From contig JACRJQ010000008.1 of the NCBI GenBank assembly GCA_016215405.1, positions 25,866 through 89,865 of the forward strand: a stretch of 64,000 nucleotides of DNA, written 5' to 3'. Of the stretch, positions 4,022 through 53,603 are shown in pieces; the first letter of the stretch is position 1, and the number at the start of each line of letters is the position of its first letter. The position numbers and the translations under genes are program-made. The notes beneath the pieces were generated by a model. The model did not search any database, was not told the origin of the DNA, and was given only the letters and a program-made list of their open reading frames with translations. The DNA is from Candidatus Tayloriibacteriota bacterium (GTDB taxonomy: Bacteria > Patescibacteriota > Minisyncoccia > Phycocordibacterales > UBA6065).

Positions 4022-4723
4022 TTACTCCTCGGGCGAAAAGGGTTTCGCCTCCCTCTCGGCGCTCACGATGACGACGAATTCTCCGCGCAGGGTGCTGGGA
4101 TTGTTCTTAAACGACAGAAGGATCTCTTCCGCTGTGCCCGAAAGATAGGATTCGTACATCTTGGTGAGCTCGCGCAGTATCGTCACGTTCTTGCCCGAAC
4201 CCTTAAGCGACTCGAGCGCCTTCTCTATGCGATGCGGCGACTCGTAGAAGATATACGGCCTCTCGCCCGTCCTAATCTCCTCAAAGAGGGTCTGGCGGCC
4301 CTTCTTGTGCGGCAAGAATCCCAAGAAGACGAATTCGTGGAGGGGCCTGCCTGCGACGGATATCGCTGCGGTCAATGCCGAAGGCCCCGGAACGGCGACT
4401 ACCGGCACGTCGGGAAGGCGCGATCTCACTTCCGAGACGAGAAGCATCCCCGGATCCGATATCCCCGGAGTGCCCGCGTCGGTCACGAGCGCGATATCCT
4501 TGCCCGCTTCGAGAAGCTCGATGACGCGGTCCATCTTCGAAAGAGGGCTCTGGGCGTGAAAGCTCTCGGTCGCCGTCCGTATGTCGTATTTGGAGAAGAG
4601 CACCCGGGACGTACGCGTATCCTCGCAGAACACGACGGAAACCTCTTTAAGCACGCGCAAAGCGCGCAAGGTGACGTCCTCGAGGTTTCCTATCGGCGTA
4701 GCGACTATATAGAGAGTAGCCAT
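4022..4723 (-). CDS. rsmI: 16S rRNA (cytidine1402-2'-O)-methyltransferase RsmI.
   Basis: MATLYIVATPIGNLEDVTLRALRVLKEVSVVFCEDTRTSRVL...LVTDAGTPGISDPG. Canonical RsmI/tetrapyrrole-methylase-like motifs. The start was moved to the internal Met at 4723. Confidence 0.9.
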   Translation of the reverse strand: MATLYIVATPIGNLEDVTLRALRVLKEVSVVFCEDTRTSRVLFSKYDIRTATESFHAQSPLSKMDRVIELLEAGKDIALVTDAGTPGISDPGMLLVSEVRSRLPDVPVVAVPGPSALTAAISVAGRPLHEFVFLGFLPHKKGRQTLFEEIRTGERPYIFYESPHRIEKALESLKGSGKNVTILRELTKMYESYLSGTAEEILLSFKNNPSTLRGEFVVIVSAEREAKPFSPEE

Positions 4724-4750
4724 AGCGTATGGGGTAAGTATACTATCAAT

Positions 4751-5959
4751 GTGATAGTAAACCTCCAAAAGCCCGTCGTCTACGTCACGCGCGACATCGA
4801 GCGAGCTTTAGGCATGGAGCCTTCAGGGAGCTACTTCGTCATATCGAACGATACGGCATACGGCAGGAAGGTCCGGGAAGCGTATCCTGACAACGTCCTG
4901 CTCGTCCGCGACCGAGGCGAAACCTCGGTAAAAGATACCGAGGTTTCGCCTCGGTATCTCGATACATACGATCTCCTGCTCATGCCCGAGGTGCAGAGGG
5001 AAATCTCAGACCGCGACGCCGACCTCCTCGTATTCCAGAACACCCCCCGCATCGAAAGGCTCGCCAAAGAGAAGGGCTGGAGCCTCCTCAACCCGTCGGC
5101 CATGCTCTCGCGCGAGGTCGAAGAGAAGGTCTCCCAGGTGGCATGGCTCGGCGAGGACGCCTCTCTCCTGCCCCCTCACCGCATCGCGCTCGCAAAGGAC
5201 GCGAGGTTCGAAGGCGCGAAGTTCGTGCTGCAGTGGAACCACTCACATACAGGAGAAGGCACCTATGTCATAGATTCGGCCGAAGCACTCTCTTCTGTAG
5301 CCTCGAGATTCCCGGATCGAGAATGCCGGATAACGAGATTCGTCGAGGGGCCGGTATTCACCGTGAACTCGGTCGTCGCGGAGGCGATCATCGTCGGAAA
5401 CCCGAGCTATCAGATAACCGGCCTCGCGCCCTTCACCGACCTTCCCTTCTCTACCATAGGCAACGACTGGGACCTTCCCCGCGACGAAGAGTACGCGGCG
5501 GTGAGCGAGGAGGTCCGTAAGATGGCGATCCGTGTCGGAGAGAGGCTCCGGCTCTCGGGCTGGTACGGGCTCTTCGGCATCGACGCCGTCTACGACGAGA
5601 AAGCCGGAAAGACATATCTCCTCGAGATAAACGCGCGCCAGCCCGCCTCGACCACGCTCGAATCGAAGCTCCAGAAGAGCGACTCTATATTCGAAGCCCA
5701 CCTCTCTGCGCTCCTCGGCCTTCCGGCTGCGAGCGGTCCGGAGATACGAGGGGCGCAGATCGTAAAGCGCGTCACCCGAGAGGCTTATTCCATAGACGAA
5801 GCCGCCCTCTCGGATAAGGGCCTCTCCCTCATCGGATACGAGAACACCGAGCACAACAAGGAGATCCTGCGCATCCAATCCGAGAGAGGTATAATGAGAG
5901 CCCACAACAAGCTCAACGACCTAGGGATATCCATAGCATCATGCATCCGCAAGATATAG
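4751..5959 (+). CDS. ATP-grasp domain protein (peptide/amide ligase-like).
   Basis: C-terminal ATP-grasp signature LSGWYGLFGIDAVYDEKAGKTYLLEINARQPAST. The start is uncertain (GTG 4751 or ATG ~4812). The upstream part of the track ORF (4232-4750) overlaps rsmI and is not coding. Confidence 0.7.
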   Translation: MIVNLQKPVVYVTRDIERALGMEPSGSYFVISNDTAYGRKVREAYPDNVLLVRDRGETSVKDTEVSPRYLDTYDLLLMPEVQREISDRDADLLVFQNTPRIERLAKEKGWSLLNPSAMLSREVEEKVSQVAWLGEDASLLPPHRIALAKDARFEGAKFVLQWNHSHTGEGTYVIDSAEALSSVASRFPDRECRITRFVEGPVFTVNSVVAEAIIVGNPSYQITGLAPFTDLPFSTIGNDWDLPRDEEYAAVSEEVRKMAIRVGERLRLSGWYGLFGIDAVYDEKAGKTYLLEINARQPASTTLESKLQKSDSIFEAHLSALLGLPAASGPEIRGAQIVKRVTREAYSIDEAALSDKGLSLIGYENTEHNKEILRIQSERGIMRAHNKLNDLGISIASCIRKI

Positions 5960-6744
5960 ATACGGAAAAGACGGGAAGCTCAAAGCTCGAAGGCAAAGCC
6001 CGCGCCGTCGTGGATTCCTACCTCGCCTTGCCTCTCGGCACCAAGCCTTCTTGCCCCTATTTCAACAATCGCAGGCGCAAAGGGCGCGGAGGGCTGCGCG
6101 TCCTCGTCGGGAAAGGCGCGCCGGAGGAGATCGCGGGAGAGGCGGAGATATTCGCGCTCCGGCAAAGGATAAAGCTCAACCTTCTCTCGACCGATAAGCT
6201 CAAAGAGTTCCTCTGCGAAAACGACCTCGGCGTCGATTGCTCCGGTTTCGCCTATCATGCGCTCGATGCGCTCTGTCGGGAAAAGAGAGGAAGGGGCATA
6301 CAGAGCTTCGTGAAGTCGAATAGAACAGGAATCCTCGGAAAGATCCTCGCGAGGCTGCGCCCTGCCGAGAACCTCGGGGTGAGCTCCTTCAGAAACGACA
6401 AGAACGGCTCTGCCGTCAAAGTCAGAGACGCGATGCCCGGAGACCTCATCACCTTTATGGGCACGGGCCGCGACAAGACGTACAACCACATCCTCGTCAT
6501 AACAGGCGTCGATAGGCTCGGCGGCGATACGCGGCTCACCTACGCGCACTCCTACTCGTGGCCTTCGGACGGACTCTACGGCCACGGCGTCCGCGAGGGC
6601 GACATACTCGTCCACGGCGAAGACCTCCTCGGCGGGACATGGAAGGAACAGGGTCAGACCGGAAGCGACAACTATACGTTTACGAGCGCTCGCGACGCGA
6701 AAGAAGTCTCGCTGCGCCGGCTGAATTTCCTTGTTGAGAGATAA
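5941..6744 (+). CDS. Putative papain-like/NlpC-P60-like cysteine peptidase or amidase (Cys-His), overlapping the ATP-grasp gene by 19 nt.
   Basis: DLGVDCSGFAYHAL (candidate catalytic Cys) and downstream YNHILVITGVD (candidate His). The 19-nt overlap with the ATP-grasp gene suggests translational coupling. Confidence 0.4.
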   Translation: MHPQDIDTEKTGSSKLEGKARAVVDSYLALPLGTKPSCPYFNNRRRKGRGGLRVLVGKGAPEEIAGEAEIFALRQRIKLNLLSTDKLKEFLCENDLGVDCSGFAYHALDALCREKRGRGIQSFVKSNRTGILGKILARLRPAENLGVSSFRNDKNGSAVKVRDAMPGDLITFMGTGRDKTYNHILVITGVDRLGGDTRLTYAHSYSWPSDGLYGHGVREGDILVHGEDLLGGTWKEQGQTGSDNYTFTSARDAKEVSLRRLNFLVER

Positions 6745-6747
6745 TCT

Positions 6748-6775
6748 CGCCGCGCCGTAAGGCGCGGCTTTTTCT
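6748..6775 (+). terminator. Rho-independent terminator hairpin (GCCGCGCC-GTAA-GGCGCGGC + T-run).
   Basis: gccgcgccgtaaggcgcggctttttcttc, directly after the stop of the peptidase-like gene. Confidence 0.5.
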
Positions 6776-6785
6776 TCTCTTGCTA

Positions 6786-6882
6786 CCCCGCCGGATCCGC
6801 ATCCTCCTTTGCGAAGAACTGTCTGAGCCGAGTCCTCGAAGGCGAGTTCGGCAAGAAATAAGGCATGGATCGGCTGAAAGAA
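6786..6882 (+). repeat. Copy A of a ~95-nt conserved intergenic element (imperfect inverted repeat ending GGATCGGCTGAAAGAA), immediately downstream of a terminator and upstream of mraY.
   Basis: It aligns base-by-base with copies at 10712-10805 and 34295-34391. The shared core is ATCCGC..CTTTGCGA(A/G)GA..GTCTGAGCC..GAGG(A/G)CG..GCA..GAAA..GCGGATCGGCTAAAGAA. Confidence 0.55.
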
Positions 6883-6958
6883 AACGTTCGATTCAGAAGC
6901 CTATGAAAATTCATTCTAAACCTTCAAATTTGGCCCTTTCTGGCGTATACTCCACCTC

Positions 6959-8092
6959 ATGACCGACTTCCTCCCCACCCAGATACAAAGCCTCACCTCG
7001 CTCCTCGGCTGGGCCATCACATCGGCGCTTGTAGCCCTTATCTGGGCGCCTTTCCTTATAAAATATCTGCGCCTCTGGGGCATAACCAGGCAGAGCGCGG
7101 GGGACGCCACCATGGGCATGGAATCGCGCCAAGGCAAAGCCGCTACGCCTATCATGGGAGGCCTCCTCATAATACTCACGGTACTCCTCCTCACCTACTT
7201 CTGGAATTGGGAGAGGCGCTACACATGGGTGCCTATCGGCGTCCTGGGCATCTCAGCGCTCCTTGGCGCCGTCGACGACCTCCTCAACGTCTTCGGCTCC
7301 GAGCGCAGGCAGAGGTCTCTTTCCCAGACCTTTACCCTCATCCGCGTCCACAAACTCTGGTACGCGAAGCTCTGGCTCATCGTCACCTTGCCGTGGACGG
7401 TCTTCAAGAGAGCGACGACGATCTTCGGCTCCAAGCAGCGCCGCGGAGTGCTCGTGCACGAGAAGCTCCTTCTCCAATTCGCCGCCGGAGGAATATCGGC
7501 ATGGTGGATCTATTGGAAGCTCGGAGAGAGCTGGCAGAACATCTATGTGCCATGGCACGGCTATCTCGATATAGGGGTCCTCGTCGTGCCCCTTATAATC
7601 CTCATCGTCATGTTCACGGCGAACGCGGTTAACGTGTCCGACGGCATGGACGGCCTCGCCGGCGGCATGCTCATCCCGACTTTCGGCGCCCTCGCCTTCA
7701 TGGCGTGGGTATCCGGCTACAGCGAGCTCGCCGTCCTTAACTCAGTGACCGCCGGCGCTCTCCTCACCTATACCTATTTCAATATAAAGCCGGCCAGATT
7801 CCAGATGGGAGATGTAGGCAGCTTGGGCCTCGGCGGGCTCCTCGCCATAAACGCCCTCGCCACGAACTCGATGATCATCCTCCCTTTCATCGCCTTCATG
7901 TTCTACGCCGAAGCCCTGACGGTCATACTCCAGACGGTCGGACGCCACGTCTTCGGACGCCGCATATTTCGCATGGCTCCCCTCCATCACCATCTCGAGC
8001 TCCGCGGCTGGTCGGAAGAGAAGGTCATCATGCGCATGTGGGTCGTCCATCTTGGTTTCGTCGTCTTGGGCGTCTGGATAGGGCTCCACTAA
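6959..8092 (+). CDS. mraY: Phospho-N-acetylmuramoyl-pentapeptide transferase MraY.
   Basis: NAVNVSDGMDGLAGG, APLHHHLELRGW, 10 TM helices. Confidence 0.9.
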   Translation: MTDFLPTQIQSLTSLLGWAITSALVALIWAPFLIKYLRLWGITRQSAGDATMGMESRQGKAATPIMGGLLIILTVLLLTYFWNWERRYTWVPIGVLGISALLGAVDDLLNVFGSERRQRSLSQTFTLIRVHKLWYAKLWLIVTLPWTVFKRATTIFGSKQRRGVLVHEKLLLQFAAGGISAWWIYWKLGESWQNIYVPWHGYLDIGVLVVPLIILIVMFTANAVNVSDGMDGLAGGMLIPTFGALAFMAWVSGYSELAVLNSVTAGALLTYTYFNIKPARFQMGDVGSLGLGGLLAINALATNSMIILPFIAFMFYAEALTVILQTVGRHVFGRRIFRMAPLHHHLELRGWSEEKVIMRMWVVHLGFVVLGVWIGLH

Positions 8093-8093
8093 G

Positions 8094-8741
8094 ATGTCGT
8101 ACCTCAACTGGGACACCAAAGTCGTAGCGGATCTATCCCCCGAGAACGTCGCAAAGATGTACGATGAAGGCTACGTGTTCACCAGGGTCGACAAAGGCGT
8201 GATGAACAGGACCCGCTCTTTCCGCGTGAACCTAAAGGCGTATCAGGCGTCCTCAGAGAACCGCCGTGTCCTACGCAAAGCCGAAGACCTCTCGCTTAGA
8301 GTGGAAGCCATCCCCTACCCCCTTTATTCCTGGAAGATAGGCAAGCTCGCCAAGGACTTCTACGAGAAGTTCGGAGACAACGTCTTTACGGCGAACAAGA
8401 TAAAGGAGATATTCACCGACGAAGCGAAGTCGAATTTCAACCGCGCCCTCGTCTATAGTTCGAAGAGATCGGGAGAAGACGTCGGATACGCGGTGTGCCA
8501 CGAGTCGAAGAGCCTCCTGCACTATTCCTACCCCTTCTACGTCGAGGAGCCCTCGCGCGGCATCGGCATGATGACCTTAGCCCTTGAGTGGGCGAAGGCT
8601 AAAGGCCTCGACTACGTCTATCTCGGCTCGCTCTCCCGCCCTTCTGACTCGTATAAGCTCCAATTCCTCGGCGGCGAGTGGTTCGACGGCGCGCATTGGC
8701 AGGTAGACACCGCCCCGCTCAAAGCCATCCTCAAGCCCTAG
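8094..8741 (+). CDS. Arginyl/leucyl-tRNA--protein transferase family (Bpt/ATE1 C-terminal domain-like, GNAT fold) protein lacking the N-terminal Cys cluster.
   Basis: LDYVYLGSLSRPSDSYKLQFLGGEWFDGAHWQ resembles Bpt DYLYLGYWI..S.KM.YK..F.P.E.L.DGAWQ. YSYPFY resembles MYSYFDP. The gene starts 2 nt after the mraY stop. Confidence 0.5.
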   Translation: MSYLNWDTKVVADLSPENVAKMYDEGYVFTRVDKGVMNRTRSFRVNLKAYQASSENRRVLRKAEDLSLRVEAIPYPLYSWKIGKLAKDFYEKFGDNVFTANKIKEIFTDEAKSNFNRALVYSSKRSGEDVGYAVCHESKSLLHYSYPFYVEEPSRGIGMMTLALEWAKAKGLDYVYLGSLSRPSDSYKLQFLGGEWFDGAHWQVDTAPLKAILKP

Positions 8742-8764
8742 GGAATCCGTTAGAGCTAAAAACA

Positions 8765-8780
8765 GTATCATATATGATAC
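8765..8780. promoter_or_regulatory. Perfect 16-bp palindrome GTATCATATATGATAC (candidate operator) upstream of rlmH.
   Basis: Seen directly. A near-identical element, ctaaaaacagtatcGtatCtgatac, recurs at 53554-53578. Confidence 0.3.
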
Positions 8781-8801
8781 TATCGCTAGAAGGATAAAAG
8801 A

Positions 8802-9224
8802 ATGAAGATATCTCTCGTAACGGTCGGAAAGACGCAGGGAAAGGAGTTCGCCGAGTCTATCGCGGACTATTCGAAGCGCGTCTCGCGCTACGTCCAGTTC
8901 GAGTTCGTCGATACGGTCGAGGAAAGGCTCGCCAAAGCGCTCGAAAAGATGGATCGCGTGTTCCTCCTCGACGAGCACGGCAAAGAATATACGTCCATGG
9001 AATTCTCGGGCTTTGTAGAGAAACAATTGAACGCCGGCGTGAAGAACGTCGCCTTCGTCATAGGCGGACCCTTCGGATTCTCGGACGAGGTCCGCGCCCT
9101 CGCCGACTCCTCCATCGCCCTCTCGAAGATGACCTTCCCCCACGACCTTTGCCGGGTCGTATTCCTCGAGCAGCTCTATCGGGCGTTCTCCATCCTTCGA
9201 AACGAGAAGTACCACCACGAATAG
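8802..9224 (+). CDS. rlmH: 23S rRNA (pseudouridine1915-N3)-methyltransferase RlmH.
   Basis: 140 aa SPOUT protein, MKISLVTVGKT...VAFVIGGPFGFSDEV...FPHDLCRVVFLEQLYRAF. Confidence 0.9.
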   Translation: MKISLVTVGKTQGKEFAESIADYSKRVSRYVQFEFVDTVEERLAKALEKMDRVFLLDEHGKEYTSMEFSGFVEKQLNAGVKNVAFVIGGPFGFSDEVRALADSSIALSKMTFPHDLCRVVFLEQLYRAFSILRNEKYHHE

Positions 9225-9265: not shown

Positions 9266-10663
9266 ATGGAAAATCCCAAGAAGGTCCACTTCATAGGCAT
9301 CTGCGGCGTCGCTATGAGCGCCGTGGCGACTGCTCTGTGGCAGAAAGGATTTAAAGTGACAGGATCTGACGCGGGCTTCTATCCGCCCGTCTCGACGCAC
9401 CTCTCGAACGCGGGCATCCCCTACTATTCGGGCTGGCATCCGGAGAAGATGGTCGAGGGCGGCGCGCCGGACCTCGTCGTCGTGGGCAACGCCGTATCGA
9501 GCCAGAATCCCGAATTCGTCTACGTAAAAGAGAGAGGCATCCCTTTTAAATCCTATCCAGAAGCCGTGGGCGAACATCTCATAAAGCCCCATTCGGTGGT
9601 CGCTTCTGGCACGTACGGCAAGACGACTTCATCCGCGCTCCTCTCGCACATATGGAAGCATGCGAGCCTGAAGCCGTCGTACATGTACGGCGGACTCACT
9701 CAGGACGGCGCTCCGTCAGCCGCGGCGGATTCGGGCGAATGGTCTATCGTCGAAGGAGACGAATATTCCACTTCGAAATGGGACAAGGGAGCGAAATTCT
9801 TCCACTACAGGCCTACGCACCTCCTCCTCACGGCGGTAAAGTGGGACCATGCCGACCTCTACCCTACGGAAGAATCGTACTTCGACGCTTTCAAGAAGCT
9901 CGTCTCCCTCGTGCCCAAAGACGGCGTTATCGTCGGATGCATAGACGTCGAGAGCGTCCCCAAGCTCCTCGCGAAGAGGGATTTCATAAGCTACGGAGCT
10001 CACAAGGACGCGTCGTACAGGTACGAGAACATCGTCCAGACTCCTTCCGGACTCACTTTCGATATCGTCTACCACGGCAAGAAGTACAATATCGAATCCC
10101 CTCTCCTCGGCGCATACAACGCAGAGAACATCACGGGCTGCTTCGCTATGGCGTACGCGTGCGGCATCTCCCCCGGAGACATCTCGGATGCGATAAAGAC
10201 GTTTCCCGGGATGAAGAGGCGGCTCGAAAAGCGCTACGAGAACGCCGTGACAGTGATAGACGATATCGCCCATTCGCCGGAGAAGGCGCGATCGGTCCTC
10301 AACAACCTCCGCCACATCTACTCAGGTCTCGTCATCGCCGTCTACGAGCCGAACATCGGCAACCGCACGACCCAATCGAAGCCGGCGTACAAGGATGCGT
10401 TCAAGGACGCTGACACGGTCGTCATCCCCCGCCTCACGAAGCTCAAGGTAGACCCCGACAATCCTGAGGCGTATTTCGACGGAGACGAGCTCGCCGCGAC
10501 CATAGAAGAGAGCCACAAGGAGGTGCACTATCTCGACAGCGACGAAGAGCTCGTCGAATTCCTGGTAAAAGCCCGCGGCAAAGGCGACGTTATAGCGTTT
10601 TTAGGCTCCCACGGCTTTCGCGGGATGATAGAAGAGACGGTAAAGAGGCTGGCACAAAACTAG
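9266..10663 (+). CDS. Mur ligase: UDP-N-acetylmuramate:L-alanyl-gamma-D-glutamyl-meso-DAP ligase (Mpl)-like, or MurC.
   Basis: HFIGICGVAMSAVATAL...VTGSDAGFYPPVSTHL closely parallels the E. coli Mpl N-terminus (ILGICGTFMGGLA...VTGSDANVYPPMS). GTYGKTTSSA P-loop. Confidence 0.8.
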   Translation: MENPKKVHFIGICGVAMSAVATALWQKGFKVTGSDAGFYPPVSTHLSNAGIPYYSGWHPEKMVEGGAPDLVVVGNAVSSQNPEFVYVKERGIPFKSYPEAVGEHLIKPHSVVASGTYGKTTSSALLSHIWKHASLKPSYMYGGLTQDGAPSAAADSGEWSIVEGDEYSTSKWDKGAKFFHYRPTHLLLTAVKWDHADLYPTEESYFDAFKKLVSLVPKDGVIVGCIDVESVPKLLAKRDFISYGAHKDASYRYENIVQTPSGLTFDIVYHGKKYNIESPLLGAYNAENITGCFAMAYACGISPGDISDAIKTFPGMKRRLEKRYENAVTVIDDIAHSPEKARSVLNNLRHIYSGLVIAVYEPNIGNRTTQSKPAYKDAFKDADTVVIPRLTKLKVDPDNPEAYFDGDELAATIEESHKEVHYLDSDEELVEFLVKARGKGDVIAFLGSHGFRGMIEETVKRLAQN

Positions 10664-10669
10664 AAAAAC

Positions 10670-10695
10670 CACGTCAGAGGCGTGGCTTTTCTTAC
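10670..10695 (+). terminator. Rho-independent terminator after the mpl/murC-like gene.
   Basis: aaaaaccacgtcagaggcgtggcttttctt. Confidence 0.5.
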
Positions 10696-10857: not shown

Positions 10858-11022
10858 CTATTTTCCCTCGTCCACGATCTCTAGAGCGACCTTATCTCCA
10901 TCGAGAGAGACGACCTCGAGCACGATCCCGCACAGAGGGCATTCTATGACGTACCCCTTAGTGATCTTCGGATGCTTCGAGACGTCGATATCGTTCTTGC
11001 ATTCTGGGCAGACGCATTTCAT
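10858..11022 (-). CDS. LysW/ArgW-like zinc-ribbon mini-protein (54 aa).
   Basis: MKCVCPECKNDIDVSKHPKITKGYVIECPLCGIVLEVVSLDGDKVALEIVDEGK. It matches the LysW architecture CPEC...C..CG..LEVV.LD plus an acidic tail, but the C-terminus is EGK rather than ...EE/DWGE. The larger track ORF (10858-11292) is only its out-of-context upstream extension. Confidence 0.5.
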   Translation of the reverse strand: MKCVCPECKNDIDVSKHPKITKGYVIECPLCGIVLEVVSLDGDKVALEIVDEGK

Positions 11023-11929: not shown

Positions 11930-12811
11930 ATGCTTACCCCTCAGATAGAAGCGCCAGAGATAGCAGAGGAGCTCGGCATCCCGAAGCTCTATATAAAGCG
12001 CGAAGACCTGCATCCGTACGGGTCGCATAAGGGCCGCTCTATCCCTATGATGATAGACCTCAAGGCCGCCCGAGGGGCCAAAGAATTCGCCATATCTTCT
12101 TCCGGGAACGCGGCGATAGCGGCCGCTCGGCATATCGAGAAGAGGAACCTCGCGGGAGACGACCTGAGGCTCACCATCTTCGTAGGCGAGAGGATAGGCG
12201 AGGCGAAAAGAAAAGCGCTCGAGAACGTATCGATCGACGAGAGGATCAAGGTCGTGGACTCTCCCCGCCCCCTTCAGGCCCTCTTCAACCTGCTCAAAAG
12301 CGAGAACGGAAAGCCCGAGAGCCTGCGCCAGTCGACCGACCCTGAGGCTCTGCCAGGCTATAAATCGCTCGCCTTCGAGATCGCAGGCACCCCCGACCTG
12401 TCCGCGGTCTTCATCGGCACGTCTTCGGGGACATCCGCCCAGGCGCTCGCTGAATATCTCATAGAGCACGAAAAGAACGCCCAGATACACGTCGTCCAGA
12501 CGCGCGGGAACTCCCCTATCGCTCGGGCGTTCGATGCCGAAGAATACGAAGGCGAACCCTCTCTCGCCGATGCCATCGTAGACAAGGTCGCTCACAGGAA
12601 GGACGCCCTCGAAGAGGCGGTGCGGAGGACCGGAGGCTCGGGATGGGTCGCTTCTAATGCCGACATAGAGAAGGCCGTAAGGCTTTTGAGCGAGAAGGCG
12701 AATGTCCGAGCCACGCCGAACGGAGCCTTGGGCCTCGCCGGCGTCATACGCGCGATCTCCAAAGGCTGGAAGCCAGAAGGCGCGGTCGTAGCGATCGTGA
12801 CGGGAAGGTAA
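11930..12811 (+). CDS. PLP-dependent fold-type II enzyme (threonine synthase / cysteine synthase superfamily).
   Basis: LHPYGSHKGRSIPMM (PLP-lysine loop), glycine-rich loops SSGNAAIAAA and GTSSGTSAQA. Confidence 0.6.
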   Translation: MLTPQIEAPEIAEELGIPKLYIKREDLHPYGSHKGRSIPMMIDLKAARGAKEFAISSSGNAAIAAARHIEKRNLAGDDLRLTIFVGERIGEAKRKALENVSIDERIKVVDSPRPLQALFNLLKSENGKPESLRQSTDPEALPGYKSLAFEIAGTPDLSAVFIGTSSGTSAQALAEYLIEHEKNAQIHVVQTRGNSPIARAFDAEEYEGEPSLADAIVDKVAHRKDALEEAVRRTGGSGWVASNADIEKAVRLLSEKANVRATPNGALGLAGVIRAISKGWKPEGAVVAIVTGR

Positions 12812-53471: not shown

Positions 53472-53562
53472 ATGTAAAGATTATGTTATCACGGCACTCA
53501 ATCCCGCCCACACCCCTTACCCATATCTCCAACCGATAGTCTCCAAATGCCAACTAAAAACA

Positions 53563-53578
53563 GTATCGTATCTGATAC
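53563..53578. promoter_or_regulatory. Second copy of the GTATC-N6-GATAC palindrome (gtatcgtatctgatac) with a conserved ctaaaaaca 5' flank.
   Basis: 24 of 26 positions are identical to 8756-8780. It sits in the promoter region of the MBL hydrolase gene. Confidence 0.3.
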
Positions 53579-53603
53579 GGTTTCCAGAATTTAGACCTGC
53601 CTA

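Follow-up and report, generated by a model that had tools for sequence, protein, structure and literature searches.

A putative ATE/Bpt-like aminoacyl-tRNA transferase encoded beside mraY in a Candidatus Tayloriibacteriota genome: a candidate for the modification of peptidoglycan precursors

The stretch of DNA analysed here, in the following the window, comprises 64,000 nucleotides of contig JACRJQ010000008.1 from a Candidatus Tayloriibacteriota bacterium. Directly behind the peptidoglycan gene mraY, it carries a gene for a protein of 215 amino acids, named BptL in this study. BptL is best explained as a cysteine-free protein of minimal size within the ATE1/Bpt branch, with a GNAT-type core, and its family as distinct from canonical Bpt. 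Bpt (bacterial) and ATE1 (eukaryotic) are the Leu-tRNA-protein and Arg-tRNA-protein transferases, respectively (Pfam ATE_N/ATE_C, NCBIfam PRK01305). The locus comprises the following features.

4763..5959, forward strand: ATP-grasp ligase, uncharacterised, start approximate (ATP-grasp_3, E 1.4e-5; weak NCBIfam matches only)
5941..6744, forward strand: NlpC/P60-fold cysteine peptidase or amidase, cytoplasmic-looking, overlapping the end of the ATP-grasp gene
6749..6768, forward strand: terminator-like GC hairpin with T-run after the NlpC/P60 gene (consensus scan)
6923..6951, forward strand: sigma-70-like promoter match just 5' of mraY (consensus scan, weak, 9/12)
6959..8092, forward strand: mraY, phospho-MurNAc-pentapeptide transferase (Pfam Glycos_transf_4; TIGR00445, E 9e-53)
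8094..8741, forward strand: BptL gene, putative ATE/Bpt-like aminoacyl-tRNA transferase, 215 amino acids
8253..8279, forward strand: S54-K62 of BptL (SENRRVLRK), conserved basic helix, putatively binding the tRNA acceptor arm (helix 54-62 of the model)
8652..8657, forward strand: Y187-K188 of BptL, putative catalytic Tyr-Lys dyad (alignment to ScATE1 Y303-K304)
8802..9224, forward strand: rlmH, 23S rRNA pseudouridine methyltransferase (SPOUT_MTase, E 7e-46; NF000990, E 3e-49)
9266..10663, forward strand: MurC-type Mur ligase (three Mur ligase domains)
10669..10685, forward strand: terminator-like hairpin just after murC (consensus scan)

A spacer of 1 nt separates the mraY stop codon (TAA, 8090-8092) from the BptL start codon (ATG, 8094), in agreement with a first-pass annotation that had placed the start 2 nt past the last base of the stop. 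The two genes are probably translationally coupled. A transcription unit mraY-BptL-rlmH-murC, bounded by the hairpins at 6749-6768 (upstream) and 10669-10685 (downstream), is likely; the promoter and terminator scans returned no more sites overall than in shuffled sequence, and only the placement of the sites is suggestive. The first-pass annotation had read the gene string as mraY-X-rlmH-mpl. Its mraY, rlmH and Mur ligase neighbours are present, while the ligase is better read as MurC-type than as Mpl (267 bits with murC vs 234 bits with mpl, each below the curated cut-off).

BptL is a genuine conserved gene and no chance open reading frame, because the search gave 979 homologues of like length at E<=1e-3 (212-230 amino acids with few exceptions, most about 215) and 55 positions are invariant among 28 aligned sequences (alignment A1, 59-77% identity). 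An identical protein is deposited at NCBI from a metagenome-assembled genome as "hypothetical protein HZA81_03715, Candidatus Taylorbacteria". Family members are labelled "arginyl-tRNA-protein arginylyltransferase" by JGI and "GNAT family N-acetyltransferase" or hypothetical by NCBI. Among the members of the wider family are forms of 225-275 amino acids, with about 12 additional N-terminal residues and often a C-terminal tail.

The assignment to the ATE/Bpt clade from sequence is weak but consistent. Pfam yielded sub-threshold matches to BptL only (Acetyltransf_6, E 0.027; ATE_C, E 0.047) and no match to FemAB. Arginyltransferase (Bpt) models account for the best seven NCBIfam matches; the top one (E 1.5e-8) spans residues 41-203 of BptL and positions 79-243 of the 247 in the model. 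Remoter family members pass the ATE_C threshold (P0176, 30.1 bits; P0200, 34.0 bits; P0239, 33.3 bits). Searches of PDB sequences with BptL alone or a close-family profile gave no convincing ATE or Fem match, and a broader family profile reached ATE1 at an E-value of about 0.4 at best. The placement is therefore based on fold comparison and the NCBIfam models. When 1.84 billion cluster representatives were searched with a family profile, only 355 clusters (50% identity) were returned at E<=1e-3, a count of unannotated hits which suggests that the family is separate from canonical Bpt.

The C-terminal stretch of BptL reads LDYVYLGSLSRPSDSYKLQFLGGEWFDGAHWQ. The ATE_C/Bpt-type signature proposed for this region is indeed present, with the residues L172-D-Y-V-Y176-L177-G178, Y187-K188, F191 and E195-W-F-D-G-A-H-W202-Q. 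The YLG...YK segment of the family aligns with ScATE1 Y290-L-G...Y303-K304 (hmmsearch; hhalign, E 5e-5); the ScATE1 sequence and numbering were verified against PDB entry 8e3s. Y187-K188 are invariant in every subfamily examined (alignments A1, A2 for the wider family, and A3). The klAte1 variants K304A and Y303F have no activity; K304 corresponds to K305 in FemX and to the catalytic lysine in L-PGS and A-PGS (PMC9351520). The lack of an N-terminal Cys cluster, likewise noted at first pass, was borne out: the sole cysteine, C135, varies among homologues, and the invariant columns of the three alignments contain none.

Upstream of the core, S54, E55, N56, R58 and K62 are invariant in A1 and R57 nearly so, and S-E-N-R-R is kept across the wider family. 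R41, R44, K84 and K87 are invariant as well. A basic helix inserting into the tRNA acceptor arm is a common hallmark of ATE1, FemX and L-PGS enzymes (PMC9351520, PMC10115844), and helix 54-62 is a likely counterpart by analogy. Via the family-ATE1 alignment, the arginine-side-chain pocket of ATE1 maps to Y144, M159, A163 and V175 of BptL. The equivalent residues are S255, S273, E277 and Y289 in ATE1 and A, A, Q and L in Bpt (PMC9351520). Since the mapped residues are uncharged and none is acidic, Arg appears an unlikely donor; a small or hydrophobic residue would fit the pocket better. The first Arg of the ATE1 motif GFRRSG (R80 in klAte1) binds the acidic N-terminus of the acceptor. At the equivalent place, BptL has G26-Y-V-F-T-R31 and other subfamilies have G-F-L-P-x-R (family pattern G-[YF]-[VL]-[FP]-x-R). 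The hhalign comparison of the family with ScATE1 and klAte1 covered the C-terminal core and left the N-terminal region unaligned; judged from motif and secondary-structure order, this Arg is apparently replaced.

An AlphaFold model of BptL, built on the family alignment, reached a predicted local distance difference test score (pLDDT) of 91.9 and a predicted template modelling score (pTM) of 0.88. It predicts an ATE_N-like subdomain and a GNAT core, i.e. the overall architecture of ATE1/Bpt. The top Foldseek matches of the model in the PDB are almost only aminoacyl-tRNA transferases, listing human ATE1, A-PGS/L-PGS/MprF, yeast and Kluyveromyces ATE1, Weissella FemX and the L/F-transferase, and not an unrelated GNAT family. 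Structure comparison with the model gave the highest score for human ATE1 (16.1; 204/215 residues aligned), followed by the soluble domain of MprF (15.2), klAte1 (14.3), L-PGS (13.8), Weissella FemX (11.6), the tRNA-dependent peptide synthase Sbb17 (10.3), S. aureus FemX (9.7) and the L/F-transferase (9.2); CoA-dependent GNATs scored up to 10.4. Bpt was absent from the PDB structure matches returned. The two FemX proteins among the matches agree with the earlier statement of a fold common with FemXAB, ATE1 being closer.

By fold and residues, BptL thus falls into the ATE/Bpt branch; it fails the curated thresholds, lacks the Cys cluster and probably lacks the acidic-N-terminus pocket. With Bpt and ATE1 it has in common the Tyr-Lys pair after the YLG strand, but it is devoid of their Cys cluster for Zn or Fe-S (CxxC...CC), and its genomic context is cell-wall synthesis. 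FemX, FemA, FemB, MurM and BppA have 330-420 amino acids and two tandem GNAT-like domains, with a coiled coil in FemA/B. BptL, in contrast, has a single GNAT core and the ATE_N-like subdomain and is structurally nearer to ATE1; it is not a Fem protein, whereas its context suggests, by analogy, a Fem-like way of working. MprF-type enzymes (L-PGS, A-PGS, LpiA) carry their tandem-GNAT catalytic domain on an integral-membrane flippase domain. Both tandem GNAT and membrane domain are missing from the BptL model, and its partners are soluble Mur enzymes. The L/F-transferase (Aat) is much less similar, differs in its N-terminal domain and gave no sequence match.

Conservation of the mraY-adjacent position in relatives, the check proposed at first pass, was examined in 80 loci of GTDB species representatives with homologues of 48-70% identity (Paceibacteria, Taylorbacteria, Magasanikbacteria and relatives; Paceibacteria-type loci in the following). 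In all 73 loci with enough sequence, mraY precedes the homologue in the same orientation, at a median distance of 23 nt and at <=20 nt in 34 loci. A gene for a MurC-type ligase follows, again on this strand, in 64/64 loci. The intervening rlmH is a lineage-specific insertion between BptL and murC, since it is present in only 12 of the 64. In one locus (L001), the opposite strand carries an inserted PemK-family toxin gene (6707-7093) between the BptL homologue and rlmH, so that insertions are tolerated between BptL and murC. Usually, an ATP-grasp ligase and a protein of 260 amino acids are encoded 5' of mraY.

Microgenomates-type contigs, whose nearest MurC relatives carry a Shapirobacteria annotation, show the order mraZ-rsmH-ftsL-PBP-murE-X-murC-murB-murA-murF-mraY, X being the BptL homologue. 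X has start/stop overlaps with both of its neighbours and lies directly 3' of murE, the gene for the ligase that installs the position-3 residue. One fusion of X with MurC forms a single protein of 645 amino acids (P0263), joined by the Pro/Ser linker PSPSVPSPSVPSPSTPS. In Verrucomicrobiota (Limisphaerales; contigs L107-L168), the homologue directly follows the alanine racemase gene alr on the same strand in 41/44 informative loci, typically after 36-42 nt, with nothing else conserved nearby. With this two-gene unit, the family reaches a phylum that has cultivable members, in which genetics might be possible. Three independent genomic settings of the BptL family point to the cell wall. In the window, the NlpC/P60-fold protein, which resembles peptidoglycan peptidases, and the ATP-grasp ligase add to this context.

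Two further arrangements were each found once. In one population (L173, 6001-8329), the homologue P0165 is followed after 50 nt by a lysyl-tRNA synthetase gene (NF001756, 518 bits, above cut-off), a pairing that resembles the synthetase pairings of MprF/LysX and VlmA/VlmL. On a single contig (L172, 6001-8430), a protein of 809 amino acids (P0236) combines the BptL domain with a PPDK_N domain (ATP-grasp-type) and a mobile domain of phosphoenolpyruvate (PEP) utilisers; a Mur ligase gene lies about 5 kb upstream.

Several observations concern the neighbours in the window. MraY has 377 amino acids, and TIGR00445 matched only from about residue 150 on (179.8 bits, cut-off 192); the first 150 residues diverge from the canonical enzyme. 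The mechanically called ATP-grasp open reading frame (4232-5959; 575 amino acids from the ATG at 4232) overlaps the divergent rsmI (4022-4768) by >500 nt, while homologues have 395-405 amino acids, which places the true start near 4763-4775. A perfect 18-bp palindrome, AGTATCATATATGATACT, occupies 8764-8781, within the 60 nt that separate the stop of BptL from the start of rlmH. It recurs with 3 mismatches at 53562-53579, and no such site is expected by chance in shuffles; the palindrome could be an operator or promoter element. Downstream of murC, a LysW-like zinc-ribbon protein of 54 amino acids is encoded at 10858-11022 on the reverse strand (NF041070, E 4e-8, below cut-off), as well as a fold-type-II pyridoxal phosphate (PLP) enzyme distantly like threonine synthase at 11930-12811 on the forward strand. 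In most of the 80 related loci, the gene for the PLP enzyme is likewise found 3' of murC. A LysW-type ribbon was called in 2/3 gene-annotated related loci; no other LysW-pathway genes were seen. A search for a dedicated tRNA gene near the BptL locus found only tRNA-Ile and tRNA-Leu, at a distance of 10-15 kb.

On these grounds, BptL is proposed, with a probability of roughly 0.55, to be a distinct aminoacyl-tRNA transferase of the ATE/Bpt clade recruited to peptidoglycan precursor synthesis, where it would probably acylate the position-3 diamino acid. The basic helix S54-K62 would dock the tRNA acceptor arm, and the conserved aromatics H143, Y144, F148, Y149 and Y176 would hold the CCA end and the aminoacyl moiety. 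The free amine of a peptidoglycan precursor would attack the aminoacyl ester, and K188 together with Y187 would stabilise the tetrahedral intermediate. Uridine diphosphate-N-acetylmuramic acid (UDP-MurNAc) tri- or pentapeptide offers a single free amine, on the side chain of its position-3 diamino acid. This amine, in a UDP-MurNAc-peptide or in lipid I/II, would be the likeliest nucleophile, and the product a branched stem peptide that resembles those of FemX/MurM but is formed by an ATE/Bpt-clade enzyme. For BptL, we infer tRNA dependence, the peptidoglycan acceptor and the attack position. The MurC fusion and the adjacency to murE suggest action at the nucleotide-linked stage; the coupling to mraY suggests a lipid-linked stage, both as read from gene order. 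Ala or another small neutral residue is no more than a reasonable guess for the donor, given that the pocket is uncharged and that the family repeatedly occurs with enzymes of alanine (MurC, Alr). Branches of Gly or L-amino acids are classically built by tRNA-dependent GNAT-fold ligases and those of D-amino acids by ATP-grasp ligases (PMC2922099); the window holds one of each class, BptL and the ATP-grasp ligase, flanking mraY.

A number of findings weigh against this proposal. The score of BptL with ATE_C (PF04377) is 14.7 bits vs a threshold of 25, and that of the top NCBIfam match is 34.4 bits vs an equivalog cut-off of 170. The N-terminal acceptor-binding region is unalignable to ATE1 by sequence, so the statement on the acceptor pocket is one of motif and topology only. 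The X::MurC fusion comes from one population, its three contigs being 99.95-100% identical, and represents one event. A subfamily of marine Bacteroidota had no cell-wall context at the loci examined. The Microgenomates-type MurE looks specific for meso-diaminopimelate (mDAP; motif EDPR, NF001126 above cut-off). Direct cross-links are the usual form in mDAP walls, although actinomycetes have LL-DAP-Gly bridges. Finally, clusters of the dcw type contain non-wall genes, rsmH elsewhere and rsmI and rlmH here, and adjacency is no proof.

That Bpt and ATE1 supply the nearest sequence models and structure also agrees with a divergent Bpt-type N-degron enzyme that attaches a destabilising residue from aminoacyl-tRNA to protein N-termini, its cell-wall location being incidental like that of rsmH or rlmH. 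JGI labels the family arginyltransferase, and the translation-related rsmI and rlmH share the locus. This explanation is nevertheless quite improbable. The ATE_N Cys cluster is missing, the GFRRSG Arg is apparently replaced, the scores stay far under all Bpt equivalog cut-offs, and the cluster count suggests no merging with canonical Bpt. Three independent cell-wall contexts and a fusion to MurC are hard to explain in these terms. A tblastn search of 172 loci (1.59 Mb of flanks) and the window detected neither ClpS nor ClpP, a weak test that covers flanks only. An aminoacyl-tRNA-dependent transfer to another acceptor, e.g. a membrane lipid as with MprF, a polyprenyl-linked glycan or a small-molecule amine, would retain the fold relationship to these enzymes; it is considered unlikely, as BptL has neither membrane domain nor tandem-GNAT architecture and its most consistent partners, MurC, MurE and Alr, are soluble.

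NCBI labels of some members suggest an acyl-CoA-dependent GNAT N-acyltransferase, with a cell-wall precursor or some other amine as its substrate. The CoA-dependent GNAT class was sought by an Acetyltransf_1-type match above threshold combined with CoA-dependent nearest structures, and this combination was not found; there is little probability for such an activity. The tight coupling to MurC, up to fusion in one lineage, would also suit a GNAT-fold protein with no catalysis of its own or with a regulatory role, which would bind tRNA or a precursor and influence MurC or MraY. The catalytic residues of ATE1/FemX are, however, invariant across phyla in the BptL family, and a purely regulatory role is regarded as very improbable indeed. 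A model based on an Mpl neighbour, in which BptL adds residue 1 to the free gamma-D-Glu peptide before ligation, was rejected as lead model: the window ligase scores higher as MurC than as Mpl, and the ligase of the Microgenomates-type locus L095 is MurC-type and stands beside murB, murA, murE and murF.

We know of no role of the ATE/Bpt clade other than the tagging of proteins for degradation, and literature searches found no description of the BptL family in candidate phyla radiation (CPR) or peptidoglycan contexts. To our knowledge, the wall chemistry of CPR bacteria is essentially uncharacterised and most of them are not growable. With chances put slightly below even, the clade holds an unrecognised, widespread branch in Paceibacteria, Magasanikbacteria, Microgenomates-type CPR, Verrucomicrobiota and others that constitutes a second, independently recruited lineage of tRNA-dependent peptidoglycan builders. 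The N-degron transferases Bpt and ATE1 might have arisen from an ancestor much like the Cys-free minimal form. The present JGI and NCBI labels are probably misleading for hundreds of genomes. A transferase wired into mraY, murC and murE operons predicts a specific stem-peptide modification, which can be checked by mass spectrometry, and BptL, as a soluble 25-kDa protein, is directly assayable. If the proposal is true, many uncultured CPR bacteria and some Verrucomicrobiota would make branched or otherwise tRNA-modified stem peptides, and tRNA-dependent peptidoglycan synthesis would reach beyond the Fem family and the classical Gram-positives to Verrucomicrobiota. One enzyme clade would then link cell-wall branching and N-degron tagging, the best-known uses of aminoacyl-tRNA outside translation.
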